This document shows, one piece after another, positions 1-61,835 of a DNA stretch of 61,835 bases; position 1 is the first letter of the stretch; every line of letters begins with the position of its first letter. Position numbers and translations under genes: made by a program. The notes below the pieces were generated by a model. It made no database searches and had not been told where the DNA came from. It saw only the letters and a program-made list of their open reading frames with translations. Origin of the DNA: a virus (taxonomy: Duplodnaviria > Caudoviricetes); the IMG/VR virus record IMGVR_UViG_3300032291_002198, positions 1-61,835 of that record; one strand, written 5' to 3'.

Positions 1-713
1 AAAGGCTCACAAGGAAACACTGGTCCCACTGGAGACAAAGGAAACAAAGGTGAGCTTGGAACCAAGGGCGATAAGGGTCGTGACGGCAACAAGGGAGCCC
101 AAGGACCTAAGGGAGACCAAGGTCCGAAAGGAGAAGTAGGCCCGAAAGGAAATACTGGAGCCCAAGGAGACAAGGGTGAAAAGGGTATCGGAGAGAAAGG
201 TCAAAAGGGCCGAGACGGACAACTAGGTCCAAAAGGAGAGGTTGGTCCAAAAGGTGACCAGGGACCCAAAGGCTCTCAGGGAAATACAGGTCCAACTGGC
301 GATAAAGGAACTAAAGGAGACTTTGGCGACAAAGGCGATAAGGGCCGTGATGGCAATAAAGGTGCTCAGGGTCCGAAAGGAGACCAGGGACCAAAGGGAA
401 CCGCTGGTACTAACGGAGACAAGGGAACTAAAGGAGACTTTGGCGACAAAGGTCAAAAAGGTCGTGATGGCAACAAGGGCGCCCAAGGTCCAAAAGGAGA
501 GGTTGGGCCCAAAGGAGAGGTTGGTCCAAAAGGTGAAGTCGGACCAAAGGGTGACACTGGAGCAAAAGGCCCACAGGGCAACACTGGCCCAACTGGAGAC
601 AAAGGAAACAAGGGTGACTTTGGCGATAAGGGCGACAAGGGTCGTGATGGCAATAAAGGAGCTCAAGGTCCTAAGGGAGACCAGGGACCAAAGGGCGACC
701 AGGGACCTAAGGG
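1..713 (+). repeat. Imperfect direct repeat with window end (1..713 vs 61240..61835)
   Basis: Position 1 aligns to 61240 and 713 to 61835; the end copy lacks a 117-nt in-frame block and has several substitutions. Confidence 0.9.
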
Positions 714-3700
714 AGACCAGGGTCCCAAGGGAGACCAAGGAACTAAAGGTTCTCAAGGCAATACTGGTCCTGTTGGGAATAAAGGAAGTAAAGGCGAACT
801 TGGAGACAAAGGTCAAAAGGGCCGTGATGGTGCCACTGGACCTAAAGGAGAAATTGGACCTCAAGGTGATATCGGTCCTAAGGGAGACGTTGGCCCTAAG
901 GGAGACCAGGGCCCCAAGGGAAATACTGGCTCAAAAGGAGAGATAGGTCCTAAAGGAAACACTGGAGCCAAAGGAGACCAAGGCCCACAAGGCATTGAAG
1001 GCCAGAAAGGCGAAAAGGGCCGAGACGGACAGCTAGGACCCAAAGGCGATACTGGTGCTCAAGGTCCCAAGGGAGACCAAGGACCTAAGGGAGACCAAGG
1101 ACCTAAAGGTTCTCAAGGTAACACTGGTCCTACTGGAGACAAAGGGAACAAGGGAGACTTTGGCGACAAAGGTGACAAGGGTCGCGACGGCAATAAGGGC
1201 GCTCAAGGACCCAAAGGTGAAGTTGGGCCTAAAGGAGAGGTTGGCCCGAAAGGAGACCAAGGTCCTAAAGGTGACCAAGGGCCCAAGGGAGACCTTGGTC
1301 CTCAGGGAGATATTGGACCTAAAGGAAGCCAGGGAGACAAGGGCTCAACTGGCGCCACTGGCCCGATAGGACCAACCGGTCCTCTAGGCCCGCAAGGACC
1401 AAAAGGCGACCAGGGTCCACAAGGCATTGAAGGCCAGAAGGGTGAAAAGGGCCGAGACGGACAGCTAGGACCCAAGGGCGATACTGGTGCTCAAGGCCCC
1501 AAGGGAGACCAGGGTCCTAAAGGCGACCAAGGTTCAAAAGGTTCCCAGGGAAATACTGGTCCTACCGGCAACAAGGGCAGCAAAGGAGAGCTTGGAGACA
1601 AAGGTCAAAAAGGTCGTGATGGTAACAAGGGTGCTCAGGGTCCTAAGGGCGACCAAGGCCCAAAAGGAGACCAAGGCCCAAAAGGAGACCAAGGCACAAA
1701 AGGTAGTCAGGGCCCTAAGGGGGACCAAGGCCCTAAGGGCGACTTGGGCCCCAAGGGAGATATTGGACCTACTGGCCCAACTGGACCAACTGGCGCCAAA
1801 GGAAGTCAAGGAAATACCGGACCCACTGGCGACAAAGGGAATAAAGGTGAAATTGGAGATAAGGGTCAGAAGGGACGTGATGGCAATAAGGGTGCCCAGG
1901 GCCCGAAAGGTGACCTTGGTCCACAGGGTCCAACTGGGCCTACCGGACCTCAAGGAACAAAGGGAAATACTGGAGCACAGGGACCCATTGGTCCTCAAGG
2001 TCCAACCGGCCCAACTGGTCCTACTGGTCCTCAAGGTAGAAAAGGCGAGCCGGGAGAAAAGGGCAACGAGGGACAAACCGGTCCTCAGGGCCCTAAAGGA
2101 AATACTGGAGCTCAGGGACCAACTGGACCTACTGGACCTACTGGACCAAAAGGTGATACTGGTGGCCCTGGAGAAAAGGGACGCAAAGGAGATGACGGAC
2201 CGCAAGGCCCACAGGGTAACCAAGGTCCAAAAGGTGACTTAGGCCCTCAAGGTCCTATTGGACCAACTGGTCCTACTGGTGCTACTGGTCCTCAAGGACC
2301 CAAGGGTAACACCGGAGCTCAAGGCGACACTGGAGAAAAGGGCCGTGAAGGTCAAAAGGGTGAGGCTGGTCCTGCTGGAGCTCAGGGCGCCAAGGGAAGC
2401 ACCGGAGCTCAGGGCCCAATTGGACCTACTGGACCTACTGGTCCTCAGGGTGCCAAGGGAAATACTGGCGCACAGGGACCGGCTGGCCCAACTGGACCTC
2501 AGGGACCAAAGGGAACTAAAGGAGACCTCGGTCCTCAAGGTGATACAGGTCCTCAAGGTAACAAAGGCAATACTGGTGCTCAAGGTCCTCAAGGTGCTAC
2601 TGGTCCTCAAGGTCCCAAAGGTGACTTAGGTCCTCAAGGTGACACGGGTCCTCAGGGCAACAAGGGAAATACGGGTGCTCAAGGTGCTCAAGGTCCCAAA
2701 GGTGACTTAGGTCCTCAAGGTGACACGGGTCCTCAGGGTAACAAAGGCAATACTGGTGCTCAAGGTCCTCAGGGTGCTACGGGTCCACAAGGTGCTCAAG
2801 GTCCCAAAGGTGACTTAGGTCCTCAAGGTGCTACTGGTCCACAAGGCCCTACGGGTCCAGTCGGTCCATTAGGTCCTCAAGGTGATACGGGTCCTCAAGG
2901 TAACAAAGGCAATACTGGTGCTCAAGGTCCTATCGGTCCAACTGGTCCATTAGGTCCTCAAGGCCCAATTGGTCCAACGGGAGCCAAAGGTGCTCAAGGC
3001 GCTCAGGGTCCTACGGGTCCCCAAGGTGCTAAGGGTCATAAGGGTTCTACTGGTTCTCAAGGCGGACTAGGCCCTCAAGGACAAAAAGGACAAGTCGGTC
3101 CTCAAGGTGAACCTGGTCAAGATGGTGCTAAGGGTGCTCCTGGTCCTACTGGGCCTCAGGGTCAAAAAGGTGCAACTGGAGCTCAAGGACCTATTGGTCC
3201 AACTGGACCACAGGGTGCTCAAGGTCAGAAAGGTGCAACTGGCGCTCAAGGACCGATTGGCCCAACTGGACCGCAGGGCGCACAGGGAGCTCAAGGTCCT
3301 AAGGGCGATATTGGACCAACTGGACCAACCGGCCCAACTGGACCGCAGGGTGCAAAGGGTAATACCGGAGCTCAAGGACCTATCGGCCCTACTGGCCCTA
3401 CTGGACCGCAGGGTGCTCAAGGTCAGAAAGGTGCAACTGGAGCCCAAGGTGCAACGGGTCCTACTGGACCTACTGGACCTCAAGGTGCGCAAGGAGCAAA
3501 AGGCAATACTGGTGCTCAAGGTCCCGCTGGACCAACTGGCCCTGTTGGTCCTCTTGGGCCTACTGGACCTACTGGACCTCAAGGGGCTAAGGGTAATACT
3601 GGTGCCCAGGGAGCTCAGGGTCCAACCGGTCCTGTTGGACCTCTTGGCCCGCAGGGTCCCGCTGGACCTACTGGTCCGCAGGGTCCGCAGGGCCTAAAGG

Positions 3701-4053
3701 GCCGCAAGGGAGACATTGGTCCTCAGGGAGACATTGGCTCTACTGGTCCTACGGGTCCAACGGGTCAAAAGGGTAATACTGGAGCTACTGGTCCACAAGG
3801 CCCTACTGGTCCTCAGGGAGCTACTGGTCCACAAGGCCCTGCTGGTCCTACGGGTCCAACTGGAGCTCAGGGTCCCAAGGGTCAAAAGGGTGCCGATGGA
3901 GGAAGTGCGAATTTCGTTTCATCAGGTTCAGCGTGTAACAGCTGTGGATTCAACAGTGCTCCAGACGATACAGAATACTATCCAGTTGGATGGCTGAAAA
4001 TTGGTGTATCTGGAAATGACTATTTTGTTCCAGCATGGCAGCAATACAACTAA
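1..4053 (+). CDS. Giant collagen-like fibre protein, C-terminal part (5' partial; continues from 60442)
   Basis: Frame 1 is open from base 1 ([19 protein letters not shown]...) to TAA at 4051-4053; nearly uninterrupted Gly-X-Y; short non-collagenous C-terminus; the ORF track start at 1744 is only the first in-frame TTG. Confidence 0.95.
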
Positions 4054-4070
4054 GAACCACAATAGTGAAA

Positions 4071-4104
4071 AACATGGGCGCCCAAAAGGCGCCCTGTTTG
4101 TTTT
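4071..4104 (+). terminator. Intrinsic terminator after collagen gene
   Basis: GGGCGCC-CAAAA-GGCGCCC hairpin followed by TGTTTGTTTT. Confidence 0.75.
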
Positions 4105-4120
4105 ATGACATCTAATTGAC

Positions 4121-4128
4121 TACATTTG
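4121..4128 (+). promoter_or_regulatory. Bacteroidota -7 promoter element (TACATTTG) for the modification operon
   Basis: Matches TAnnTTTG, about 20 nt upstream of ATG 4148. Confidence 0.7.
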
Positions 4129-4147
4129 AGCATCAAATTGAATTCAC

Positions 4148-4702
4148 ATGATGCTAAATGCCTTTATTGTAGATGGCTTCTACGACAATCCAGATGAGGT
4201 TCGTGCCTTTGCTCTAGTCCAAGATTTCAACGTAACTGGCAACTTCCCCGGGGCTCGCACCAAAAGCTTCAACAATGATAGCGTATTCAGTGTGCTCCAA
4301 TCAATAGTTGGTCCCCACGCTGGGAAAATCAACTATTTTCCAGAAGACTACAACGGGGCTTACCAAATAACAACAGCCAGTGACCGCTCTTGGATACACG
4401 CAGACAACGGAACAAAGTGGGCTGGAGTAGTCTATCTTACTCCAAACGCACCCCTATCTAGCGGAACTGGATTCTTCAAGCACAAGGCTTCTGGACTCAC
4501 TTGGTCTTCCGATGGAAAGGGAGACTGGAATGATGATTCTCAGGACATGACAAAGTGGGAGCTTACTTCATCTGTCGGGAATATGTACAACCGATTGATA
4601 CTGTACCGAGGCAAGCAGTTTCATTCATCTCTTGACTACTTTGGCAACAGCTTAGAAAACGGCAGACTGTTCCAAACCTTCTTCTTCTCTACTGAGCAGT
4701 GA
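4148..4702 (+). CDS. 2OG-Fe(II) oxygenase, DUF6445-like
   Basis: IVDGFYDNPDEVR N-terminus; WIHAD (HxD), FHS (distal His) and GRLFQTFF (2OG-binding Arg). Confidence 0.8.
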   Translation: MMLNAFIVDGFYDNPDEVRAFALVQDFNVTGNFPGARTKSFNNDSVFSVLQSIVGPHAGKINYFPEDYNGAYQITTASDRSWIHADNGTKWAGVVYLTPNAPLSSGTGFFKHKASGLTWSSDGKGDWNDDSQDMTKWELTSSVGNMYNRLILYRGKQFHSSLDYFGNSLENGRLFQTFFFSTEQ

Positions 4703-7029
4703 ACATAGTATTTCACGTAGGTTACTTTTCAAAACCATGGAACGCAAAGACAGGCGGTCCAGGTGGCACTGAACAGTGCGTGATTAGTCTTTCTGACGAG
4801 CTTGCAAAGCTTGGGCACTCCGTATACGTATTTGGAGAGGTCAATCCAATGCATACGGACTATCCAATTGGTAGCGTAACCTATTGCTCATTTGAAAATG
4901 CGTTAATCCCGCAAGAGATAGACTTTCTAATAGGTGTTGGATACCTACATTACCTTAAGCCATTTAGTGAGCATAGGGTTGAAAATAGGCTGTTCTGGCT
5001 CCACAATGAAGAGCCATACTTCTGGTACAATGGAGTCAGGATGTCAGATGACGAAATTCATCATGCGTTTGATTCAGCCGACAGAATCATCTGCCTAACT
5101 AGATGGCACAAGAATGACTTCATCTCAAGATATGGGTTACACGATGGTAAGGTTTCCATCATAGGAAATGGGATTGACGCAAAGAAAATTAGGAGAAGGG
5201 GCAAAAAGAGGGCGGATTCATACATTTACACTTCCCACGCAGAGCGTGGCCTTTCTAAGGTTCTTGACGATTTTGAAACCGGAGTCATATCTGGAGAACT
5301 GCATATATGTACTCCTAGGTATGGTATTGAATATCTTGAGTCATGGTTTTTAGACAGGATATCTAAGAATCCGAACATCATATACCATGGAGCTCTTTCT
5401 CAAGAAGAGCTCTATGGATTGCTTAGCCAAATGCAATACTGGTATTATCCCACCCAGTACAACGAAACCTATTGCATAACAGCTATTGAAATGCTTGCGC
5501 ATCATGTGATTCCAATGGTAAATCCAATTGCAGGACTCGCGGATACGCTAAATGAATTTGCTTATAGTATTGATTGCTGGAATTGTGTTGACGATTACGT
5601 CAAGACAAGGTTCTGGAGCAATGTCGTAAGCGAATGGGAATTGTTATTTTATCAAATTCAAAACCAATCAAGTATGAATATATATGATTTAGAGGTAGAT
5701 AGTGTCGAGTTCATCCCGGCAGCCGCAAAAACAGCGCCGTATGATGTAGAAAAGACATACATCATCTGCCTTTACCCAACAGAGGAAAAGAAGGCCGAGT
5801 TATTGAATCGGTTCTCGTCTTCTGGCATAAGCTCAAAACAAGTAGTTGTCTTTGAGGCAAGTAACGGCTATACAAGAAACCTGATTCCGCCAGACACAAA
5901 AGTTTGGAAGGATTGGAAAATCAATAGCGATAACAGCTGGTGGAATCGTGACGTGCTTCCTGGAGAAATTGGGTGTGCTGTATCACATTGGCGGATATGG
6001 AATGATGCACATTCGCATCGTCATAGCAAAATTCTCATCCTTGAGGAGGACTTTACCGTCATTCGACCATTCAACAGAGAGGCGGTTAATACATCTGAAG
6101 ACTGGACCATTATGTATCTCGGTCACAGCTTCGTGAATCAGCCAGTTAGGACCGTAACTGCAAATCTTGTTCAGCCTGGATATACATATACGACACACGC
6201 GTATATGCTTACCTATGACGGCTGTCGTCTTCTCCTTGAGCAGAACTTCTTAAGCTCAATCATCCCTCTTGATGAGTTTCTGAGTGCTACCTTTTGCGAC
6301 CATCCAAGAAAAGACCTGTCATGGATTTGGAAGGACAGCAAGGCGCTCGCAACAGTTCCAGCTTTCTTTGGGCAGAGCAGTACGAAAGAGACATCTACGA
6401 CAGAAAATCAACCGGCCTTATCTAGAATGAATCTAAATAACTATAGCTACGAAGAATTCGTGCAGCGCTTTGTGACCTACTCTGCGCGGACGAAAGAATG
6501 GGAGCTCATTGTTGATGAGCCAATCAATGACGTATTTGTGTTCCCTCTGTTTACCGAAGAGTTCTGCAGCTTGCTAATAGAGCAAGCGGAAGAATCTCAG
6601 AAGTGGACCAGGAACCGACACTACTTCTATCCGACTTGTGATATGCTAATCAACGAGCTAGGACTTCAAGATTACTACCAGCGAATCCTTGAGGAATTCG
6701 TCTATCCGGTGGCCATTCAAAAGTGGGCACTAGAAGGAAAAGAGTGGCCCGTGCTTTCAAGCGAAAACTTCATCATCAAGTACGATGAGTCTGTGCAGGG
6801 TCATCTTGCGCTGCATCACGATAGCGCAGACATCTCAATGGTCCTTGCTTTGAATGATGACTATGAAGGCGGAGGAACCTACTTCTGGCGTCAGAAGCAG
6901 CTCCACAAGGGCAAGACTGGACACATCTCAATTCACCCATCTGTAATCACCCACCGACATGGTGCTCGCGCTGTTACGAAAGGAAAGCGCTTTGTACTTG
7001 TCTCATTTTGTAACAAACCCAAAAAATGA
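4699..7029 (+). CDS. Trifunctional fusion: GT4-like glycosyltransferase + GT25/COLGALT-like glycosyltransferase + PLOD-type lysyl hydroxylase domain
   Basis: N-terminal GPGGTEQ, WLHN, YTSHAERGL and ETYCITAIE (GT-B); middle GEIGCAVSH, ILEED, YTYTTHAYMLT and IIPLDEFL (GT25); C-terminal VFPLFTEEFC, NFIIKY, LHHDS, YEGGG, HPSVITHRHG and GKRFVLVSF (PLOD catalytic domain). Confidence 0.88.
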   Translation: MNIVFHVGYFSKPWNAKTGGPGGTEQCVISLSDELAKLGHSVYVFGEVNPMHTDYPIGSVTYCSFENALIPQEIDFLIGVGYLHYLKPFSEHRVENRLFWLHNEEPYFWYNGVRMSDDEIHHAFDSADRIICLTRWHKNDFISRYGLHDGKVSIIGNGIDAKKIRRRGKKRADSYIYTSHAERGLSKVLDDFETGVISGELHICTPRYGIEYLESWFLDRISKNPNIIYHGALSQEELYGLLSQMQYWYYPTQYNETYCITAIEMLAHHVIPMVNPIAGLADTLNEFAYSIDCWNCVDDYVKTRFWSNVVSEWELLFYQIQNQSSMNIYDLEVDSVEFIPAAAKTAPYDVEKTYIICLYPTEEKKAELLNRFSSSGISSKQVVVFEASNGYTRNLIPPDTKVWKDWKINSDNSWWNRDVLPGEIGCAVSHWRIWNDAHSHRHSKILILEEDFTVIRPFNREAVNTSEDWTIMYLGHSFVNQPVRTVTANLVQPGYTYTTHAYMLTYDGCRLLLEQNFLSSIIPLDEFLSATFCDHPRKDLSWIWKDSKALATVPAFFGQSSTKETSTTENQPALSRMNLNNYSYEEFVQRFVTYSARTKEWELIVDEPINDVFVFPLFTEEFCSLLIEQAEESQKWTRNRHYFYPTCDMLINELGLQDYYQRILEEFVYPVAIQKWALEGKEWPVLSSENFIIKYDESVQGHLALHHDSADISMVLALNDDYEGGGTYFWRQKQLHKGKTGHISIHPSVITHRHGARAVTKGKRFVLVSFCNKPKK

Positions 7030-7625
7030 ATCTAAATCTGATATTTGAACCAGGAAAGCCCCGCGATATGACGGGGTGGTATTTCTTTGAGGCAGCTTTC
7101 TCTCGTGAGGAAATTGCTAAAATCAAAGAGGAAATTGAGAAGGTGAGTTTCTCAAAGGCGGGAATCGCCAGTCATGCAACTGGCGAGGCCCTTAGTGTTG
7201 TCCGCAGGTCAAACATCAAGTGGCTACCGAAGGATAAGGCTTTCGCTTGGGTTTACGAGCGACTGATGAACTACATCACCATAGCAAATGAAAATATGTG
7301 GGGATTTGACCTCTACAGCGTATTAGACTCTATTCAGTACACCCAGTATGATGGCACGGAGAAGGGTTTTTACGACTGGCATTTGGATACGGGACCTAAC
7401 GAGTTATCGTACCGAAAGGTATCGTTGGTTGTACAGCTGTCCGACCCAACTGCTTACAATGGAGGAGACCTTGAGATTCGTAGCGGCGGCGGAATAAGCA
7501 GTGCCTCTAAGACCATTGGAACCGTGACAATTTTCCCATCATATTTACTGCACCGAGTGACGCCTGTAACATCCGGATTACGAGAGTCTCTCGTGCTTTG
7601 GGCGGGGGGAGAACACTATCGGTAG
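7026..7625 (+). CDS. 2OG-Fe(II) oxygenase, prolyl-hydroxylase/PKHD-like
   Basis: YDWHLD (HxD), RKVSLVVQLSDP..Y.GG.LE, FPSYLLHRVTPVTSGLRESLVLW. Confidence 0.88.
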   Translation: MNLNLIFEPGKPRDMTGWYFFEAAFSREEIAKIKEEIEKVSFSKAGIASHATGEALSVVRRSNIKWLPKDKAFAWVYERLMNYITIANENMWGFDLYSVLDSIQYTQYDGTEKGFYDWHLDTGPNELSYRKVSLVVQLSDPTAYNGGDLEIRSGGGISSASKTIGTVTIFPSYLLHRVTPVTSGLRESLVLWAGGEHYR

Positions 7626-7630
7626 TTTGC

Positions 7631-7638
7631 TATCTTTG
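7631..7638 (+). promoter_or_regulatory. Bacteroidota -7 promoter (TATCTTTG)
   Basis: TAnnTTTG immediately before ATG 7644 (near-leaderless). Confidence 0.6.
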
Positions 7639-7643
7639 CCTTT

Positions 7644-7964
7644 ATGGCAAATGATGCAAACTTTCTCAAGAGGTATGGTCTTTCAGGCTTCAGCAAGCCA
7701 AAGAAGACTCCATCTCATCCTACGAAGAAGGGCATTGTTGCCGTCAAGATAGACGGCAAGCCCAGAATCATACGATTTGGTGACCAGAATATGGGTCACA
7801 ACTATAGCCCAGAGGCCCGCAAAGCTTTCAAAACCCGCCATGCAAAGAACATTGCTAAGGGTCCGAGCAGTGCAGCCTACTGGGCTAATAAGTTTTTCTG
7901 GGGTGGTCCAAGCGCTGATAAGAAGATGCCACCAAAGTCTCAAAAATATACCCGTGGAATCTGA
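7644..7964 (+). CDS. Small basic conserved phage protein
   Basis: KPKKTPSHPTK, IIRFGD, RKAFKTRH and SAAYWA pattern common in aquatic phages. Confidence 0.7.
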   Translation: MANDANFLKRYGLSGFSKPKKTPSHPTKKGIVAVKIDGKPRIIRFGDQNMGHNYSPEARKAFKTRHAKNIAKGPSSAAYWANKFFWGGPSADKKMPPKSQKYTRGI

Positions 7965-8353
7965 TGGCAACAGCTACCAAAAAGAACCCAGCGCTTTGGA
8001 AACGAATAGTCTCCCAGGTGAAGTCTGGCAGCAAGGGTGGGGACCCCGGGGAGTGGAGTGCGAGGAAAGCGCAATTAGCAGTTTCGTTATACAAGAAAGC
8101 CGGAGGCTCTTACGGGGGGCCCAAGCGCTCGACTTCTCTCTCAAAGTGGACCCAGCAGAACTGGCGTACAAAAAGCGGTAAGCCTTCATCTGAAACGGGC
8201 GAACGTTACCTGCCAGAGAAAGCCATAAAGTCCTTGTCTTCAGCCGAATACGCTGCAACAAGCCGAGCAAAGAGAGAGGGAACAGCCAAGGGGAAGCAGT
8301 TCGTTGCTCAGCCAAAATCAATAGCAAAGAAGGTCAAGAAGTTTCGTTCTTAA
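7964..8353 (+). CDS. DUF5872-like basic phage protein
   Basis: LWKRI, GEWSARKAQL, YKKAGG and GERYLP motifs. Confidence 0.7.
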   Translation: MATATKKNPALWKRIVSQVKSGSKGGDPGEWSARKAQLAVSLYKKAGGSYGGPKRSTSLSKWTQQNWRTKSGKPSSETGERYLPEKAIKSLSSAEYAATSRAKREGTAKGKQFVAQPKSIAKKVKKFRS

Positions 8354-8383: not shown

Positions 8384-8391
8384 TACATTTG
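8384..8391 (+). promoter_or_regulatory. Bacteroidota -7 promoter (TACATTTG) for the head operon
   Basis: TAnnTTTG upstream of 8415. Confidence 0.7.
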
Positions 8392-18486: not shown

Positions 18487-18494
18487 TACTTTTG
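18487..18494 (+). promoter_or_regulatory. Bacteroidota -7 promoter (TACTTTTG)
   Basis: TAnnTTTG directly before ATG 18499. Confidence 0.6.
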
Positions 18495-28363: not shown

Positions 28364-28567
28364 ATGGAATGGGAATACTACACCAATCCGAGCAAGAAAA
28401 TTCAAATTGACGGCCTTCTTGAGAGGGCAGCTTCGGTATTCGCTAACTGCGATTCTACCTCAGAAGCACGTGCTGAAGCACGTCGTCAAGAGAAGAAAAT
28501 CTTGAGCGAGATTGCTAAGATTGATGCCCTCTTCGCTGAGCGATGCGGGTGCAACGAGCTATACTAA
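28364..28567 (+). CDS. Hypothetical protein
   Basis: ATG 28364 downstream of TACCTTTG promoter at 28317. Confidence 0.55.
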   Translation: MEWEYYTNPSKKIQIDGLLERAASVFANCDSTSEARAEARRQEKKILSEIAKIDALFAERCGCNELY

Positions 28568-29524
28568 GCCCTTTAGTCGCTCCTTGTTGATTTGGGAGAT
28601 ATCGTAGTGCTTCTTGCAGTACTCGTATAGCTCCCCGCCAAGGTTTTGCGCTTTTTCCAACGTCATATCAGCAACAGCTTTCCTCCACTCCTCAGGCGTG
28701 GAGCAGAGTATTCCTGTCTTGTTGTGGATGATAGCCTGCTTGTATGGCGTTGTATTTGAGGCAATGATTGCCGTCTTGGTGTACCCTGCCTCAACCACCT
28801 TTAGGTCCGACTTGCATCGGTTGAACTTGTTGTTCAAGAGCGGAGCCAGAGCCACATCAAAGTGGCGATAGAGCTGCGCGTATAGGTGGATGTCAAGGGG
28901 GTACATTGTGTACTTGGCCCGAAGGATGTCTGGGTAGTCCATCAGGTTCATGCAGTACAGCTCATGATTCTCAAAAGTGACCCCCATTGAAAGAAGGTCA
29001 TTGCGGTGGCCATTGGCTCCGATGTATCCAAAGCGAACAAGTCCTTTTGGATTCGGGTCTTTCTCTTGTTCAGCCCACTGCTTTTCTTGCTCGTATACCG
29101 TGTTGGGGATTACGCGGTATACAGCGTTCTTATTCACCTTTCGCATCTTGTGCGCAAGGGTTTCAGATGGAGTCCATATCTCGTCAGCAATACGGATGCT
29201 TGCAAGAATCTCCCCAGATACTTGCTTCTTGTAGTGTTCCTTTGCTGGATTGTCGTCTGGAAGTTCCCAGAAGTCGTCGTTGTCAAGGATTAGCTTGACC
29301 TTGTGCTTCTTGAGCCACTTCTTGAACTCGATGTAGTTGGAAACGGTACACCGACGAGAAACGATGACAGAGCCAACCTTGGTCATGTCAAACTCCTTAA
29401 GCTCATTGAAGCTTGAGAAGAAGTGGATGTTGACACCCTCCTCCGCTTTGAGGCGGAGGAATGGAGTCATCAGTCTGTGGTAGTTGATGCCGTTTAGGCC
29501 GTCAAGAAATATCAGCGTTATCAT
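28559..29524 (-). CDS. Glycosyltransferase (GT-B, GT4-like)
   Basis: GINYHRL, LILDNDDFW and LAPLLNNKFNRCKSDLKVVE; start reassigned to ATG 29524. Confidence 0.85.
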   Translation of the reverse strand: MITLIFLDGLNGINYHRLMTPFLRLKAEEGVNIHFFSSFNELKEFDMTKVGSVIVSRRCTVSNYIEFKKWLKKHKVKLILDNDDFWELPDDNPAKEHYKKQVSGEILASIRIADEIWTPSETLAHKMRKVNKNAVYRVIPNTVYEQEKQWAEQEKDPNPKGLVRFGYIGANGHRNDLLSMGVTFENHELYCMNLMDYPDILRAKYTMYPLDIHLYAQLYRHFDVALAPLLNNKFNRCKSDLKVVEAGYTKTAIIASNTTPYKQAIIHNKTGILCSTPEEWRKAVADMTLEKAQNLGGELYEYCKKHYDISQINKERLKGLV

Positions 29525-29729
29525 CGTGGTATTCCAGTAATGCTGAGCGAACCATGTCAAACTCGTTATCTATTTCTCTCTTGAACTTGCGTATGGTATT
29601 ATGAAGCCTATCAGCGTCAGTCCGCGCTGTTCCGCCTTCGTCGTGTAGGCTTTCATACAGGAGTGTGGCTGCGTTTGCCATCCTCGATGTCGCCATAAAG
29701 TAGGTCTTACTCAGTTCCTCTTTGTCCAT
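29502..29729 (-). CDS. Hypothetical protein
   Basis: ORF overlapping both neighbours in the operon. Confidence 0.6.
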   Translation of the reverse strand: MDKEELSKTYFMATSRMANAATLLYESLHDEGGTARTDADRLHNTIRKFKREIDNEFDMVRSALLEYHDDNADIS

Positions 29730-32156: not shown

Positions 32157-32807
32157 CTATCGGAAGTCGTATCCGAATCTGAGGAAGTCTGCATGGTATA
32201 GTGCGCTGATAAGAAGTTTTGCCTCGTCGTCCAACTTTAGCCTTTCCGAAAAGCTTCTGTTTTCTTTCTCAGGCTTCTTTTCTAAAGCCATGCCGATAGC
32301 GTTTGCTGCTACCGCCATATCCACATCAAAGTCCTCAAGCTTTCCAACGAAGTCAATGTCATCTGGAACCCAGGCTGATTGCGTTACCATTGTTTCATGT
32401 TTGTCGCCGAGGTAATTTCCATGGTGCCAAAACTGCATCATTGACGCATGAGCAAACGCTTTTGCTCCATTGATGGTGCCATCCCATGGCTCTGGAAGTG
32501 CATGATTTTCTTGTAAAATTTCATGCACTCCCCACACGTCGTCAAGTTGATACTTCATGTGGTCAGCATAGCTGCTCAGGAACCACGTGTATGGATTTCG
32601 CACAAAGGTGAACTTGAAGTACGAGTTCCATCGTTCTTCTCCAGCCATAGCGCGTACCGAATTGGGACCGAAGTGCCCATAGGGCGGTGTGCTGTTGTCT
32701 GAGCTTATGCAGTCTGGGTCGGCCGCAATCAACAGATTCTCCACGGTGGTACTCCCGGTCTTGGGAATGCGAATGAAGATGCACTTGTATTTGTCTGAGA
32801 TTATCAT
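32157..32807 (-). CDS. Sulfotransferase (Sulfotransfer_2 family)
   Basis: 5'-PSB FIRIPKTGSTT; 3'-PB FVRNPY...SSY; DFVGKLE and YHADF..FGY. Confidence 0.88.
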   Translation of the reverse strand: MIISDKYKCIFIRIPKTGSTTVENLLIAADPDCISSDNSTPPYGHFGPNSVRAMAGEERWNSYFKFTFVRNPYTWFLSSYADHMKYQLDDVWGVHEILQENHALPEPWDGTINGAKAFAHASMMQFWHHGNYLGDKHETMVTQSAWVPDDIDFVGKLEDFDVDMAVAANAIGMALEKKPEKENRSFSERLKLDDEAKLLISALYHADFLRFGYDFR

Positions 32808-46551: not shown

Positions 46552-46605
46552 TAACGAAAAGATAACATTGGTTAACGCTGGGATAACATTGGACACGTAG
46601 GTTTG
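46552..46605 (+). promoter_or_regulatory. Promoter TAGGTTTG with four ~11-bp-spaced TAAC repeats
   Basis: TAAC at 46552, 46563, 46573 and 46584; TAGGTTTG at 46598. Confidence 0.78.
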
Positions 46606-49018: not shown

Positions 49019-49026
49019 TAACTTTG
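49019..49026 (+). promoter_or_regulatory. Bacteroidota -7 promoter (TAACTTTG)
   Basis: TAnnTTTG before ATG 49043. Confidence 0.65.
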
Positions 49027-52977: not shown

Positions 52978-53006
52978 ATCAGTATCTTTGTTTCAAAAGT
53001 ACTATT

Positions 53007-54294: not shown

Positions 54295-54531
54295 ATGGAA
54301 CTTATCAGAAAAATCATCGTGGGGCAAAACCCCAAAGACGCCATGGCGTACTTCGTCGGTCAACGGACTGGCGATGCCGTAGTCGATTCAATCATTCAGG
54401 ACGAACGAGCCCTATCAGTGTATGGGATTCGTCGATATCTTGTCTACATTTACAATTCCGAAAAGGGCACCATGCTCTGGAAAACCATAGACGATATGCC
54501 CTGTTTAATTGAACACGATTGCGACTTCTAA
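54295..54531 (+). CDS. Conserved phage protein upstream of the GroES-like gene
   Basis: LIRKI.VG..PKDAM.Y.VGQ...WK....MP..IE. Confidence 0.65.
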   Translation: MELIRKIIVGQNPKDAMAYFVGQRTGDAVVDSIIQDERALSVYGIRRYLVYIYNSEKGTMLWKTIDDMPCLIEHDCDF

Positions 54532-55169
54532 TGAAACCAATTAGATACTTCATAGTACGAGTACCAAAGCCCGTAAAAGACACTATCGAGATTGCGGGCA
54601 AAGAGATGTACTTGGATACCAAGTTCAATGAGTTTGCTCACCGCGCAGTAGAGGGCGAAGTCATTGGAGTGCCTCAGCGATACAAGACCGATGTATCTGT
54701 TGGAGATACATTGTACTTTCATCACCACGTTTTGCTTGGGGGAAATCACCTCGTGTATGGTAACCAACAGTTTGATGAGGCAAAGCATCGCCGAGGGCAG
54801 TTTGTATTTGAAGACGATACCCTGTACTATGTGTGGTGGGATGGCGGTAATGACCCGCACAGCTGCCAAGCGTACGCATACAAGAGCAAAGAGACCGGAG
54901 AAGTTCGTCTTCTCGGGCCATGGATATTCCTTAGTCCAGCAGAGCAGGACGATGAGCTAAAGAGTGAGACACTTGAACTAGTTCAATCAAAGAAATCATA
55001 CAACCAGTACGGATACATTCGTTATCCATCAAATATGTTGGAGGAGCTCGGCCTCAAGCCGGGCGACAAGGTATTCATTCAAAAGAATGCTGACTACGAA
55101 ATGGAAGTAGACGGAGAGCGTCTGTATCGGGTAATGCTATCTCACATCTATGCCCAGGTCCAAGAATAG
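54531..55169 (+). CDS. Tandem GroES-like co-chaperonin
   Basis: GEVIGVP...VSVGDTLYF and LKPGDKVFI...YEMEVDGERLY. Confidence 0.7.
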   Translation: MKPIRYFIVRVPKPVKDTIEIAGKEMYLDTKFNEFAHRAVEGEVIGVPQRYKTDVSVGDTLYFHHHVLLGGNHLVYGNQQFDEAKHRRGQFVFEDDTLYYVWWDGGNDPHSCQAYAYKSKETGEVRLLGPWIFLSPAEQDDELKSETLELVQSKKSYNQYGYIRYPSNMLEELGLKPGDKVFIQKNADYEMEVDGERLYRVMLSHIYAQVQE

Positions 55170-57573: not shown

Positions 57574-57605
57574 ATCAAATAAGTATATTTGCATATTAGC
57601 CCGCA

Positions 57606-60047
57606 GTGGATATGCAAAGAGATTATACAGCAAAAGGCCAATCTACCTTTCCCGACCCGCTAGCGAGTACGGAAGAAAAAATGTCGCAAAGCTATGGCCT
57701 TCAGTATGCAAAGGCCATGTACGCACAGTGGATTGGTGTTGACTACAACAACTCACTATATGGTCGTAGGTTCAATGAAATGCAGAACAACCGCGACTAT
57801 GCACAAGGAACTCAGGATACGTCAATCTACCGACAGATTCTCAGCTCCTTGGATGCAAACAACGGAGACGGAACGATGCTTACGCTGGACTACACTCCCG
57901 TTCCCATCATCCCGAAGTTCGTTCGCATTGTAGTAAACAAGATTCTGTCGCGCAAGCCGTACCCTCAGGTACAAGCCGTTGACCCCCTTTCTCGTAGCGA
58001 GAAGGACAAGAAAAAGAATGTCGCTATTCTGCACATTGAAAACAAGGATATTCTTCAAGAGGCAAAAGCCCTTGGTCTCCCCGTTAAAGTAGACCCGGAT
58101 GCGCTTCCAGATACTCCAGAAGAAACGGAAATCTTCTTGGATACCAATGTCAAAACTGACGCAGAAATCGCAGCACAGCTAGCCACGGAGATGACTCTTA
58201 CGTGGAATGACTTTGACGACGCCATCTACCGTCGCTGCGTTGAGGATTTGGTTAACTGTGGTATGGCTGTTACCAAGCGTACCAACGACCCGAACTACGG
58301 AATTCGTGAGCAATACGTAGACCCAGCATACTTCATTCACAACTATACTGATGACCCCAATATGACGGAGCTGACCTACGCTGGTCACTTCCGCACGGTC
58401 ACCATCATGGAGCTCAAGCGATTGGCTGGGAACCAGTTCACCGAAGAGCAGTACCAGCAGATTGCTCAGACGGTTATGAATCGCTACGGGAATGACCCGT
58501 TGCGCTACGCTACTCAGGGGTACAACTACGAAACCATCAACAACCGCTATCGCTACGGATACGACGAGTACAAGGTGCAAATCATGGACTTTGAGTTCAT
58601 GTCTGTTGACGATATCATCTTTGAAAAGAAAGAGTCCAAGTTTGGAAACATTGGATTCTACTACAAGGGTCATGAGTACAATGCCCCGCAGCAATCAGTA
58701 TTTGACCGTGAGGCAGTATACATGAGGAATGCCACCGTATACGGAGGCATATTCGTTATTGGAACTGAGCTGATGTTCAACTACGGAGTTCAGAAGAATA
58801 TCCCGAAAAACGTACACGACATCTCTCGTGCTCGCCTTTCATACTCTTGCGTAGCCACGAATCTACGTGGCATGATTCCCAAGTCTATGGTGTCAAGCAT
58901 CATCGGCTTTGGCGATATGCTGCAAATCACTCACTTGAAGATTCAGCAGTCAATCGCTAAGGCTAAGCCTGATGGTCTCATCATTGACATCGAAGGACTT
59001 GAGAACGTACAACTCGGACGCGGTGGTGAACTGCAACCTCTGGAGATTCAAGATATCTACGAGCAGACTGGTGTATTCTACTACCGCTCAAAGAATCCAG
59101 AGGGCGGGTTCCAAAACCCGCCTGTCCGCGAAATCGGAAACTCCATCCGAAACATTGAGCAGTTGGTTGGAATCTACAACCACTACTTGCGCATGATTCG
59201 CGATGCTACGGGAATCAATGAAGTTGTTGACGCGAGCACGCCTAAAGCAGACGCTCTTGTTGGTGTTCGCGAGCAGGCTATTGCTGCTTCTAACAATGCT
59301 ACCTACGACATCACTCATGCTGCCCAGGTACTATACAAGAAGGTATGCGAGGACATCGTTAAGTGCCTTCAGGTGATTCCGCCGAAGAGCATCATCTACA
59401 AGTCCTACACCAATGCGATAGGAGAAACCAACATGGCTGTCCTTACGTCGTTTGACAATCTGTCGATGTACAACTTTGGTGTCATCGTGATGGGGGAGAT
59501 GGACGACCGCGCTAAGATTTACCTTGAGCAGAACATCAACATGGCCCTTTCTCAGAAGGAGATTGACCTTGAAGATGCAATCGCTATCCGACAGCTAAGA
59601 GACCCAGAGCAAGCAGAGCGCTTGCTTGTCGTACGCCGTAAGAAGCGTATGCGTCAGCGCATGGATGAGGCAGCTCAGCAAGCCCAGCTTCAGGCTGATT
59701 CCAACGCTCAGGCTGCCCAAGTAGCCTCTCAAGCAGAGATTCAAGCAGAGCAGATAAAAGCTCAGCTTGAAGCTCAGAAGATTCAGTTGGAGACGCAATC
59801 AAAGGCTGAGCTTATGGGACTTCAGCACACATACGATATGGAACTACAGCGCCTCAAGAACGAGGCTGTTGTGGGCTCTCAGGTCGTGCGTGGTCAGGTT
59901 CAAGAGACTACTGACATGATGAAGGAAAATCGTAAAGATGCCCGAATCAATAAGCAAGCAGAGGCTCAGTCTAAGTTGATTTCTCAGCGCCAAGGAGAGG
60001 CTCCGTCGTTTCAGCCCAGCCTAATGGATGCTCTAACTAATCAATAA
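57606..60047 (+). CDS. Portal protein
   Basis: Follows TerL; LDYTPVPIIPKFV, IRDATGINE and a Gln-rich coiled C-terminus; TATATTTG promoter at 57584; alternative ATG at 57612. Confidence 0.85.
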   Translation: MDMQRDYTAKGQSTFPDPLASTEEKMSQSYGLQYAKAMYAQWIGVDYNNSLYGRRFNEMQNNRDYAQGTQDTSIYRQILSSLDANNGDGTMLTLDYTPVPIIPKFVRIVVNKILSRKPYPQVQAVDPLSRSEKDKKKNVAILHIENKDILQEAKALGLPVKVDPDALPDTPEETEIFLDTNVKTDAEIAAQLATEMTLTWNDFDDAIYRRCVEDLVNCGMAVTKRTNDPNYGIREQYVDPAYFIHNYTDDPNMTELTYAGHFRTVTIMELKRLAGNQFTEEQYQQIAQTVMNRYGNDPLRYATQGYNYETINNRYRYGYDEYKVQIMDFEFMSVDDIIFEKKESKFGNIGFYYKGHEYNAPQQSVFDREAVYMRNATVYGGIFVIGTELMFNYGVQKNIPKNVHDISRARLSYSCVATNLRGMIPKSMVSSIIGFGDMLQITHLKIQQSIAKAKPDGLIIDIEGLENVQLGRGGELQPLEIQDIYEQTGVFYYRSKNPEGGFQNPPVREIGNSIRNIEQLVGIYNHYLRMIRDATGINEVVDASTPKADALVGVREQAIAASNNATYDITHAAQVLYKKVCEDIVKCLQVIPPKSIIYKSYTNAIGETNMAVLTSFDNLSMYNFGVIVMGEMDDRAKIYLEQNINMALSQKEIDLEDAIAIRQLRDPEQAERLLVVRRKKRMRQRMDEAAQQAQLQADSNAQAAQVASQAEIQAEQIKAQLEAQKIQLETQSKAELMGLQHTYDMELQRLKNEAVVGSQVVRGQVQETTDMMKENRKDARINKQAEAQSKLISQRQGEAPSFQPSLMDALTNQ

Positions 60048-60056
60048 ATTTGCAAT

Positions 60057-60440
60057 ATGTCCTGTTGTACCGTAACTCCTACTGCAGTTGTAAGCATAGC
60101 AACTAGAGTTGACATTGTATGTTGGCGAGGTGACACATTTGTGCTTACTGCTACCATTGCTGATGCAAATGGTAACGCTGTTGACCTGAGTGTTTACACT
60201 TGGAAAATGGAGGTGCGAGAATACGACAATGGCCCGCTAGTTATTACTAGTTCAAACATCACCGTTACTGGAACAAGTCTTGGTGTTCTTACCGTCACCA
60301 TTAGTTCTACGAATATGCTTGTAAACGCAGGAACTTACGTCTATGAAATTCAAGCTACAAACCCAACACCTAACCCAGATACCGTGACTACATACTTGTA
60401 TGGTCAATTCACTGTAACTCAAGATATTGCTGCAAACTAA
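60057..60440 (+). CDS. BppU-N/Ig-like fibre-anchoring protein
   Basis: [18 protein letters not shown] and YLYGQFTV; directly upstream of the collagen gene. Confidence 0.65.
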
Positions 60441-60441
60441 C

Positions 60442-61835
60442 ATGGCTGGAGAAGTTGATATTACCCTACCTGGACCCCTCGTTGTAGAGATTACTAACAC
60501 TGGAGTTCAACAGCTCCCCGGTTCAAAAGGAACCAAGGGAGCAAAAGGAACTCCTGGTGGTGCATCTGCAAAGGGAGACAAAGGAAATACTGGTGCTACT
60601 GGTCCTACTGGCCCTCAGGGAGCCACTGGTCCCACTGGTGCAACTGGACCAAAAGGCTCTGATGGTCCTACTGGTCCTACTGGACCTACCGGCTCTAAAG
60701 GAGCTACTGGAGCTCAGGGTCCTACTGGTCCTACTGGACCAAAAGGTTCTGATGGTCCTACTGGTCCTACTGGACCTACCGGCTCTAAAGGCGATACTGG
60801 AGCTCAGGGCCCAACTGGTCCTACTGGACCAAAAGGTTCTGATGGTGCAGCTGGACCAAAAGGAGACCAAGGCCCTAAAGGGGCCACTGGTCCCGCTGGA
60901 GACAAAGGACAAAAAGGACTAGGAGATAAAGGACAAAAAGGCCGTGACGGTTCTGCTGGACCTAAAGGCGAAGTCGGACCCAAGGGTACAGCCGGAACCA
61001 ATGGTGACAAAGGAAATAAAGGCGAACTCGGTACTAAAGGTCAAAAGGGCCGAGACGGAAACAAAGGCGCTCAAGGACCCAAAGGTGACCAAGGTCCCAA
61101 GGGAGAAGTAGGGCCTAAAGGAAGCACTGGAGCCCAAGGAGACAAAGGAGATAAGGGCATCGGAGAAAAGGGTGAAAAGGGCCGAGACGGACAGCTAGGA
61201 CCCAAGGGAGACGTTGGTCCAAAAGGCGACCAAGGCCCTAAAGGCTCACAAGGAAACACTGGTCCCACTGGAGACAAAGGAAACAAAGGTGAGCTTGGAA
61301 CCAAGGGCGATAAGGGTCGTGACGGCAACAAGGGAGCCCACGGACCTAAGGGAGACCAAGGTCCGAAAGGAGAAGTAGGCCCGAAAGGAAATACTGGAGC
61401 CCAAGGAGACAAGGGTGAAAAAGGAATTGGAGAGAAAGGTCAAAAGGGCCGAGACGGACAACTAGGTCCAAAAGGAGAGGTTGGTCCAAAAGGTGACCAG
61501 GGAACCAAAGGCTCTCAGGGAAATACAGGTCCAACTGGCGATAAAGGAACTAAAGGAGACTTTGGCGACAAAGGCGATAAGGGCCGCGATGGCAATAAGG
61601 GAGCTCAAGGTCCAAAAGGTGAAGTTGGTCCCAAGGGAGAGGTTGGTCCAAAAGGTGAAGTCGGACCAAAGGGTGACACTGGCGCAAAAGGCTCACAGGG
61701 CAACACTGGCCCAACTGGAGACAAAGGAAACAAGGGCGACTTTGGCGATAAGGGCGACAAAGGTCGTGATGGCAATAAAGGAGCTCAAGGTCCTAAGGGA
61801 GACCAGGGACCAAAGGGCGACCAGGGACCTAAGGG
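60442..61835 (+). CDS. Giant collagen-like fibre protein, N-terminal part (3' partial; not in ORF track)
   Basis: ATG 60442, [35 protein letters not shown], then Gly-X-Y to the window end, in the same frame as 1..4053. Confidence 0.93.

Follow-up and report, generated by a model that had tools for sequence, protein, structure and literature searches.

The window analysed here is a whole IMG/VR virus record of 61,835 bases (IMGVR_UViG_3300032291_002198; linear, CheckV completeness 100), in which a collagen-like fiber gene is followed on the plus strand by three genes for putative modifying enzymes. The central gene encodes a 776-residue protein that joins a GT4-type glycosyltransferase (GT), a GT25 glycosyltransferase and a lysyl hydroxylase (LH) of the PLOD type, and the genes on either side of it encode predicted 2-oxoglutarate (2OG)/Fe(II) oxygenases. 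An initial annotation, made from the letters of this DNA, had described a bacteriophage with a Lys-rich Gly-X-Lys collagen of more than 1,600 residues and, behind it, a translationally coupled three-gene operon with its own promoter. A PHROG search of the window identified genes for a large terminase, a portal, a capsid protein and a holin, which confirm the bacteriophage identity, and for a primase/helicase. The phage is podovirus-like.

The collagen-like gene and the enzymes encoded behind it

The collagen gene is split over the two ends of the record. Its N-terminal piece (60427..61835, plus strand; 469 residues, 143 Gly-X-Y triplets) probably starts at the ATG at 60442, directly after the stop codon of an upstream 127-residue gene, has a non-collagen head of 26-31 residues and runs out of the end of the record. 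The C-terminal piece (1..4053, plus strand; 1350 residues, 433 triplets) closes with a 48-residue non-collagen tail; within it, the density of Lys is higher over the first two thirds and that of Pro over the last third. The two pieces are out of frame with each other. The first 101 nucleotides of the window repeat positions 61240-61340, and a clean terminal overlap was rejected, as this identity is followed by divergence. Because only 101 nucleotides are identical and 489 of 596 bases match over a longer comparison, we place an assembly break inside the collagen repeats. In a relative whose enzyme is 99% identical to that of the window (locus L002), the complete collagen has 1461 residues and both window pieces map to an overlapping region of its repeats. 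This suggests a length of about 1460-1815 residues for the window collagen, so that the figure of more than 1,600 is plausible, although the exact length is not fixed. The complete collagens of other relatives range from 1182 to 2147 residues.

The window collagen has 576 visible Gly-X-Y triplets, of which 412 form the longest uninterrupted run, and the Pfam Collagen family (PF01391) matches its last 117 residues with an E-value of 1.3e-10. Lys occurs at 197 Y positions and at no X position, as befits the Lys-rich Gly-X-Lys collagen of the initial annotation, and related collagens likewise carry Lys almost exclusively at Y. Pro is found at 213 X and 5 Y positions, and the other residues at Y include Thr (123 of 576) and Gln (134). 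The collagen triple helix rises 0.286 nm per residue; with this value, the visible triplets correspond to a helix roughly 0.5 micrometre long.

Three genes lie 3' of the collagen, at 4148-4702, 4699-7029 and 7026-7625. They overlap by 4 nucleotides at both junctions, in agreement with the translational coupling that had been proposed. The second gene encodes the 776-residue enzyme, whose GT4-type GT-B domain spans residues 1-324 (4699..5670, plus strand), its GT25 domain residues 346-572 (5734..6414, plus strand) and its LH domain residues 576-776 with the stop codon (6424..7029, plus strand). These assignments, also made in the initial annotation, were recovered by Pfam, by sequence search of the PDB and by structure modeling with Foldseek; the Pfam matches, all above their cut-offs, were Glyco_transf_4 (residues 21-162), Glyco_transf_25 (352-460) and OGFOD2-like (574-672). 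Conservation was assessed in two alignments of homologues, one of 23 sequences and the other of 79 full-length sequences with 35-88% identity. The AlphaFold2 model, built from the 79-sequence alignment, has a mean predicted local distance difference test (pLDDT) score of 89.8 and shows three domains with low-confidence linkers at residues 325-345 and 573-575. In Foldseek, the top nine matches of the model were all human LH3 (E-value 2e-20), and the model also matched the LH3/ColGalT1 complex (8zgc; 1.1e-17) and COLGALT1 (9e-15).

The LH domain is of the PLOD/L230 type of collagen lysyl hydroxylases, with the activity itself being predicted from sequence and fold. In the PDB sequence search it matched human LH3 over residues 571-772 (E-value 3.8e-21, 78 bits) and mimivirus L230 over residues 593-772 (1.2e-20); the similarity covers the whole domain, including its N-terminal helical part, and no other oxygenase was among the matches. 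The modeled domain superimposed on L230 (6ax6_B) with a template modeling (TM) score by target of 0.84, a root-mean-square deviation of 1.9 A and 31% identity over 196 columns. Residues Y695, H706, D708, H754 and R764 were invariant in the 23-sequence alignment; in the larger one, the first three were invariant and H754 and R764 were at least 90% conserved. They correspond to Y814, H825, D827, H877 and R887 of L230, which bind Fe and 2OG (PMC5802723). The LH of L230 forms a tail-to-tail dimer via a conserved Leu and an aromatic pocket (PMC5802723, PMC9614988).

The GT25 domain resembles the catalytic GT2 domain of COLGALT1, which it matched with an E-value of 1.3e-15 when the whole protein was searched and 2.1e-16 when the domain was searched alone. 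Its solved relatives were COLGALT1 and, weakly, mimivirus R655, while a search of the protein database with this domain only returned 7 matches, all without names. The Pfam family is PF01755 (37.6 bits against a cut-off of 24). The segment LEEDF aligns with FEDDL of COLGALT1, which places E449-E450-D451 on the Glu-Asp-Asp Mn site; across the 79 sequences, E449 was invariant and D451 at least 90% conserved. This Mn site of COLGALT1 is unusual, and its Glu435 and Asp437 are essential (PMC12003778).

The GT4 domain was assigned by Pfam (PF13439, 44.9 bits against a cut-off of 28.5) and by fold. In Foldseek, this domain of the model matched retaining GT4 enzymes with E-values of 1e-13 to 1e-10, namely a mannosyltransferase, the alpha-1,2-glucosyltransferase tll1591, glycogen synthases and MshA; the structural matches 7qsg, 7fga, 3fro and 3c4q had TM scores by target of 0.53-0.66. 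E256 and E264, a Glu pair in the C-terminal half of the domain that is invariant in both alignments, presumably form the EX7E motif. The PLOD-GT family (PF25342) had no match in the 776-residue enzyme, even at E-values up to 1.

Both flanking genes encode predicted 2OG-Fe(II) oxygenases, in line with the initial annotation: the downstream protein belongs to PF13640, and the upstream one is recognized by its DUF6445 motif and modeled fold. The upstream 184-residue protein (4148..4702, plus strand), a predicted 2OG/Fe(II) oxygenase, has invariant H84, D86, H159 and R173 and matches PF20043 with 44.9 bits against a cut-off of 24. Its neighbors in the protein atlas are DUF6445 clusters that are 86-100% viral. 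Searches of the PDB with its sequence or with a profile gave no match, nor did NCBIfam, and a profile-profile comparison found no relation of DUF6445 to the 199-residue family (probability 0.3%). Its model (pLDDT 74) had 28 Foldseek matches at E-values up to 0.001, and those listed were all 2OG oxygenases (PtlH, PHD2, OkaE, ColD and HygX) with TM scores of about 0.5. Among 26 podovirus-like and crAss-like loci, the DUF6445 gene was present with collagens rich in Gln at Y (12-35%) and absent from those poor in it (0-6%), a complete split. As a general rule this link was rejected, since it fails in T4-like clades, where Gln-rich collagens occur without the gene; it serves only as a lead.

The downstream 199-residue protein (7026..7625, plus strand) is a 2OG-FeII_Oxy_3 or PKHD-type oxygenase (PF13640, 46.3 bits against a cut-off of 27) with H119, D121, H176 and R186 invariant in 12 sequences. 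In a profile search, its nearest solved relatives were PKHD/PiuC hydroxylases (E-value 3e-12). We compared the presence of this gene with collagen composition in 47 loci, including the window, each with at least 1.1 kb of sequence 3' of the enzyme gene. Pro made up 7-63% of X positions where the gene was present (n = 30) and 0-3% where it was absent (n = 17). On the tree of the three-domain enzyme, each trait changes four times, and all 4 independent pairs agree. Of 40 residue-and-position features compared in 35 distinct loci, Pro at X was the strongest correlate (32.5% versus 1.2%). Since gene presence tracks Pro at X, we read the 199-residue protein as an X-proline hydroxylase and propose that it acts like a collagen prolyl hydroxylase; its membership in the prolyl 4-hydroxylase (P4H) family is not established.

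Distribution among phages and bacteria

The protein database contained 178 relatives of the 776-residue enzyme at E-values up to 0.001, and 98 of the 120 listed cover at least 97% of the query, with identities of 34-100%. Relatives are encoded on 338 IMG/VR contigs, and we surveyed the gene order around the best 80 of these. Co-occurrence of the homologues with Lys-rich collagens had been chosen beforehand as a test of the proposal, and a giant collagen open reading frame (ORF; 30 to 892 triplets) was indeed found directly upstream, on the same strand, in 61 of the 80 loci. In six of the remaining 19, the sequence upstream extends for only 0.2-1.8 kb. The carriers belong to at least three kinds of phage: podovirus-like, crAss-like (with a muzzle protein) and T4-like myoviruses (with gp20, gp23 and tail sheath). 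The enzyme-collagen arrangement is widespread and not peculiar to the window phage. One T4-like locus (L076:2-9926) carries three consecutive collagen genes of about 1070-1120 residues, the first without Lys or Pro and the other two with Pro at 60-88% of X and 4 Lys each, followed by the three-domain enzyme, a 199-residue-type oxygenase and an extra protein combining GT4 and GT9.

In the podovirus-like clade of the window, the gene order is portal, 127-residue protein, collagen, enzymes, two small proteins, scaffold and capsid. The nearest named relatives of the window's terminase belong to Elemovirus (Flavobacterium podoviruses; 39.7% identity) and to Cellulophaga phages, and the terminase of an uncultured spring-water phage is nearer (47.5% identity). 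In the cultured relative Elemovirus, the portal, scaffold and capsid genes are contiguous, with nothing in between. This indicates that the cassette of about 8.3 kb is an accessory insert.

Cultured phages carry the modules in another architecture. The Synechococcus phages S-CAM9 and S-PRM1 share a layout of a fiber gene of about 1830 residues, a small gene, two 2OG-FeII_Oxy_3 genes and a 614-residue gene. The fiber gene is labeled “tail fiber protein” in S-CAM9 and “hypothetical protein” in S-PRM1, and the 614-residue gene is labeled hypothetical; its product consists of GT25, PLOD-GT (PF25342, E-value 8e-47) and LH. In the fiber protein of S-CAM9, 22 of the 59 Gly-X-Y triplets have Lys at Y, and no triplet has it at X. 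In the Roseobacter phage CRP-6, a 489-residue “putative tail fiber protein” of GAKGQKGEVGAQG-type repeats is encoded between portal and capsid, and a 589-residue protein of GT25, PLOD-GT (PF25342, E-value 4.5e-28) and LH is encoded two genes 3' of it. The S-CAM9-type architecture had relatives in 1301 protein clusters at E-values up to 0.001, and the 120 listed bear no specific names.

The LH domain alone matched 2398 representative clusters at E-values up to 0.001, 700 at 1e-10 and 84 at 1e-30. In the 24 proteins scanned, its fusion partners were GT25, PLOD-GT, GT4, a C39 peptidase, TPR repeats or none. The repeated fusion of LH with GT25, GT4 or PLOD-GT suggests functional coupling. Two of the fusions, LH with a C39 peptidase (607 residues; P0283) and LH with GT25 and TPR repeats (570 residues; P0250), were seen as well, and such C39 and TPR fusions hint at possible uses of LH beyond collagen fibers.

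Among prokaryotes (185,579 species, one genome each), we found 6 relatives, all in metagenome-assembled genomes (MAGs) and of the GT4-LH or LH-only type. One of these, a 556-residue GT4-LH protein (L091:9992-11662), lies among ordinary cellular genes on the chromosome of an Aliishimia MAG, where the neighbors, judged by their translations, are a two-component system and transporter-like membrane proteins. The substrate of this enzyme must be something other than collagen, because there is no collagen gene within 10 kb.

A proposed collagen-maturation cassette and its alternatives

The gene order, domain identities, catalytic residues, folds and co-occurrence statistics given above are direct observations, and in their light we consider it likely that the window carries a self-contained collagen-maturation cassette for a virion fiber, in which the phage itself performs Lys hydroxylation and glycosylation. 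We infer from them every chemical step of the following scheme, the order of the steps, the identities of the sugars and the site of the fiber on the virion, head or tail. The phage would make a very long trimeric collagen-like fiber with Lys at about one third of the Y positions, and all steps would take place before or during chain folding, in the cytoplasm of the infected cell. The C-terminal LH would hydroxylate Y-position Lys (X-Lys-Gly) with Fe(II), 2OG and O2, the fused GT25 would then move a first sugar from a UDP-sugar onto the new hydroxyl, and the fused GT4, a member of a retaining family, would extend this sugar or add a second one. In a fourth and a fifth step, the downstream 199-residue oxygenase would hydroxylate X-position prolines and the upstream DUF6445 oxygenase would add another hydroxylation.

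Several observations weigh against this scheme. As a control, we sampled viral collagens regardless of the presence of an LH (139 loci, with 90 distinct ORFs that have 30 triplets or more). Among the 28 ORFs with at least 5 Lys, the median share of Lys at Y was 0.85; in 12 of them Y held at least 95% of the Lys, and in 4 no more than 50%. Viral collagens thus commonly tend to carry Lys at Y, and window-type collagens stand out by their Lys density (about one third to one half of Y positions) combined with the exclusive use of Y. An LH gene was found on the contigs of 2 of 4 records with Lys-rich control collagens, one of them the L032 contig, and of 0 of 3 with Lys-poor ones, all fragments and too few to count. 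In addition, 90 of the 200 Gly-X-Lys triplets in the window precede Gly-Asp or Gly-Glu; Lys followed by either forms a salt-bridge motif that stabilizes triple helices, and this motif alone could account for Lys at Y.

Other points concern the enzymes and their occurrence. The Pfam match of the GT25 domain is limited to model positions 3-104 of 199, the first half. Solved P4Hs matched the 199-residue protein with E-values of 0.12-0.8, behind PKHD/PiuC, and the proline correlation comprises four independent events; a sign test on them yields p = 0.125, which is as low as four pairs allow. The other 13 of the 19 loci without an adjacent collagen are one T4-like group with none within 10 kb, as is the case in all 6 bacterial MAG loci. 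In that T4-like group, collagen genes were found elsewhere in 3 of the 4 records searched; one record has a 1536-residue collagen ORF about 1.5 kb beyond the surveyed flank, and the portion of it that was read has Lys at 44 Y positions and at no X position. Finally, no RNA run was present among the public sequencing runs matching the window DNA.

We regard it as unlikely that the LH hydroxylates collagen Lys while the GT domains act elsewhere, on Y-position Thr or on another protein, with the hydroxylysine serving cross-linking or hydration. Such a division of labor would make use of the Thr found at more than a hundred Y positions, and Bacillus BclA has O-glycosylated GXT repeats. The GT4 domain is also without a collagen-specific relative, its structural neighbors being glycogen synthase, MshA and similar enzymes, and for mimivirus particles a review reports hydroxylysine but not its glucosylation (PMC9614988). 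However, the GT25-LH fusion recurs in different architectures, among solved structures the closest to the GT25 domain is a hydroxylysine galactosyltransferase, and the GLT25D1-like domain of L230 glucosylates hydroxylysine in vitro (PMC9614988). We favor glycosylation of the collagen hydroxylysine by the fused domains.

The enzymes might instead be host-directed auxiliary genes that remodel the envelope or modify host proteins, with the collagen next to them by an accident of a variable region. Database labels read this way ([quoted passage not shown], where LPS is lipopolysaccharide, and the PHROG category “moron, auxiliary metabolic gene and host takeover”), a paper on pelagimyophages takes phage glycosyltransferases as modifiers of the O-chain (PMC7029224), and GT4-LH genes stand among cellular genes of a bacterial MAG without collagen. 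This explanation appears improbable to us in view of the adjacency to collagen in 61 of 80 loci across unrelated phage lineages, the position of the cassette inside the head-gene block, the specific PLOD/L230 likeness of the LH domain and an accessory oxygenase whose presence tracks the composition of the collagen itself. Least probable of all is that the collagen is modified as proposed but serves outside the virion as a matrix or adhesive protein, either released or bound to the cell. That the cassette is an insert missing from relatives speaks for this reading; against it, the collagen gene lies between the portal and the scaffold and capsid genes, homologous collagen-bearing proteins carry (putative) tail-fiber labels beside other fiber genes in S-CAM9 and CRP-6, and the short non-collagen head and tail pieces are as in trimeric fibers.

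The maturation cassette favored here has its closest known counterpart in mimivirus L230, which pairs a GLT25D1-like GT with an LH and adds both hydroxyl groups and glucose to Lys in the collagens of mimivirus (PMC9614988). Like the window enzyme, L230 (895 residues; LH structures 6ax6 and 9nev) combines in one chain a GT25-like transferase with Glu-Asp-Asp and a PLOD-type LH, with identical residues for Fe and 2OG, and its substrates are the Lys-rich, Pro-poor collagens of its own virus (PMC9614988). In contrast to L230, the window enzyme is 776 residues long, has an extra N-terminal GT4 domain with the GT-B fold and lacks a PLOD-GT match, and its gene lies directly behind the presumed substrate, with two further oxygenases at its sides. 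Because it comes from a tailed phage of bacteria, the window enzyme, unlike L230, would act in a bacterial cytoplasm. With their compact GT25, PLOD-GT and LH layout, the proteins of S-CAM9 and CRP-6 come nearer to L230 in architecture than the window enzyme does.

Animal LH3/PLOD3 and COLGALT1/GLT25D1 (6fxk, 9evj) share both catalytic modules and the metal site with the window enzyme, which would be expected to act on the same motif as they do, a Gly-X-Y triplet with Lys in the Y position. LH3 likewise has a third transferase, but this is a GT-A domain, whereas that of the window enzyme is a GT4 of the GT-B fold. In animals, LH3 and COLGALT1 are separate proteins that form a complex in the endoplasmic reticulum (8zgc), whereas in the window the modules are in one chain, from which the non-catalytic GT1 domain of COLGALT1 is absent.

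Collagen prolyl hydroxylases are known from a virus and from bacteria in the P4Hs of PBCV-1 and Bacillus anthracis. The 199-residue protein shares with collagen P4H and PKHD enzymes the 2OG-FeII_Oxy_3 family with its HxD..H..R residues and tracks collagen proline; it is nearest to the PKHD type (PiuC, Sbal_3634, YbiX), enzymes whose substrates are unassigned, and P4Hs are marginal relatives. Animal collagen P4H acts on Pro at Y, unlike the situation in the window, where the prolines are at X. Hydroxylation of adjacent collagen-like and tail-collar proteins by bacterial 2OG oxygenases, followed by sulfotransferases, was predicted by Iyer et al. in 2010 (PMC2938197). The window resembles those operons in having a Sulfotransfer_2 gene, and some relatives have one directly 3' of the enzyme gene; the oxygenases of those operons belong to other families, and the available part of that paper describes neither a PLOD-type LH nor GT25 (PMC2938197). 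Among the structural proteins of pelagimyophages, “triple collagen repeats” have been noted (PMC7029224), and a Baltic Sea virome paper states that the use of a phage prolyl 4-hydroxylase “remains cryptic” (PMC9301287). Our full-text literature search turned up no paper in which an LH or PLOD-like enzyme of a phage is connected with a phage collagen.

The chemistry of L230 and of PLOD and COLGALT is already known, and what is new is the GT4-GT25-LH enzyme behind its presumed substrate, the two further oxygenases and the wide occurrence of such cassettes in phages. Collagen Lys hydroxylation and hydroxylysine glycosylation are regarded as animal chemistry with one viral outlier, yet the modules described here are common in bacteriophages, and the arrangement sits unannotated in cultured phage genomes. 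The cultured phages S-CAM9, S-PRM1 and CRP-6 are those in which the chemistry can be measured, and with the modules present in phages, the origin of PLOD and COLGALT can be put to the test. The cassette also suggests what phage 2OG oxygenases without an assigned role may act on. If the proposal is true, a single enzyme suited to the bacterial cytoplasm would help to make modified recombinant collagen in E. coli. We put forward tentatively, with distinctly less confidence than the cassette itself, that tailed phages of many lineages may possess a complete cytoplasmic collagen maturation (Lys hydroxylation, two-step GT25/GT4 glycosylation, PKHD-type X-Pro hydroxylation, DUF6445 hydroxylation and, in some, sulfation) that yields glyco-collagen fibers half a micrometre long, and that the phage and bacterial module might be an older home than animals for the PLOD-COLGALT partnership, which animals and giant viruses both employ.

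Neighboring genes and candidate expression signals

No DNA-level relative turned up when 22 kb of the window was compared, for near-identity, with 50,697 phage records. The public sequencing runs with matching DNA are mostly labeled freshwater metagenome and come from 14 studies. Directly 5' of the collagen gene, the 127-residue protein (60057..60440, plus strand) matches phrog_1084 (E-value 3.7e-17) and has weak Ig-like matches (Big_1/Invasin_D3) below the cut-off. A homologue lies 5' of the collagen in 43 of the 80 related loci, and the protein may have a fiber-associated or anchoring role. Two small, very basic proteins of 106 and 129 residues (7644..8353, plus strand; 7644-7964 and 7964-8353) travel with the cassette. 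The first corresponds to phrog_7595 and the second to phrog_14910/17747, with a weak DUF5872 match, and they are present in 40 and 28 of the 80 loci, respectively.

The Sulfotransfer_2 family gene of the window (32157..32807, minus strand; Pfam E-value 4.8e-16) is located outside the cassette, in the early region. In 8 of the 80 loci, all of one clade, a gene of this family lies directly 3' of the three-domain gene (for example, L033:12247-12834), which suggests sulfation of the fiber or of its sugars as an accessory step. A further GT-B glycosyltransferase (phrog_7162, E-value 2.8e-40) is encoded outside the cassette at 28559-29560 on the minus strand.

A terminator-like GC hairpin with a T-run (4076..4094, plus strand; 7-8 pairs, 7 of them G-C) lies 23 nucleotides after the collagen stop codon. 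The operon's own promoter, as claimed in the initial annotation, was not borne out: a scan for sigma-70-like sites was at chance level, with 7 found and 7.1 expected, and a sigma-70 promoter was rejected. A candidate promoter element, TACATTTG (4121..4128, plus strand), lies 20 nucleotides before the ATG of the operon and matches TAnnTTTG, which we take to be the -7 box of Bacteroidota promoters. This motif is found 12-33 nucleotides 5' of at least nine plus-strand gene starts, that of the operon included (4121-4128, 7631-7638, 8384-8391, 18487-18494, 46598-46605, 49019-49026, 52983-52990, 57584-57591 and 60045-60052), although its total in the window is at chance, with 38 occurrences against 34 expected. 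As a lead only, TAnnTTTG may act here as a Bacteroidota-type -7 box, which would fit a Flavobacteriia-like host. A GroES-like gene of 216 residues (54519-55169) lies 5' of the terminase gene, and the corresponding region of Elemovirus likewise has GroES-like and GroEL genes.

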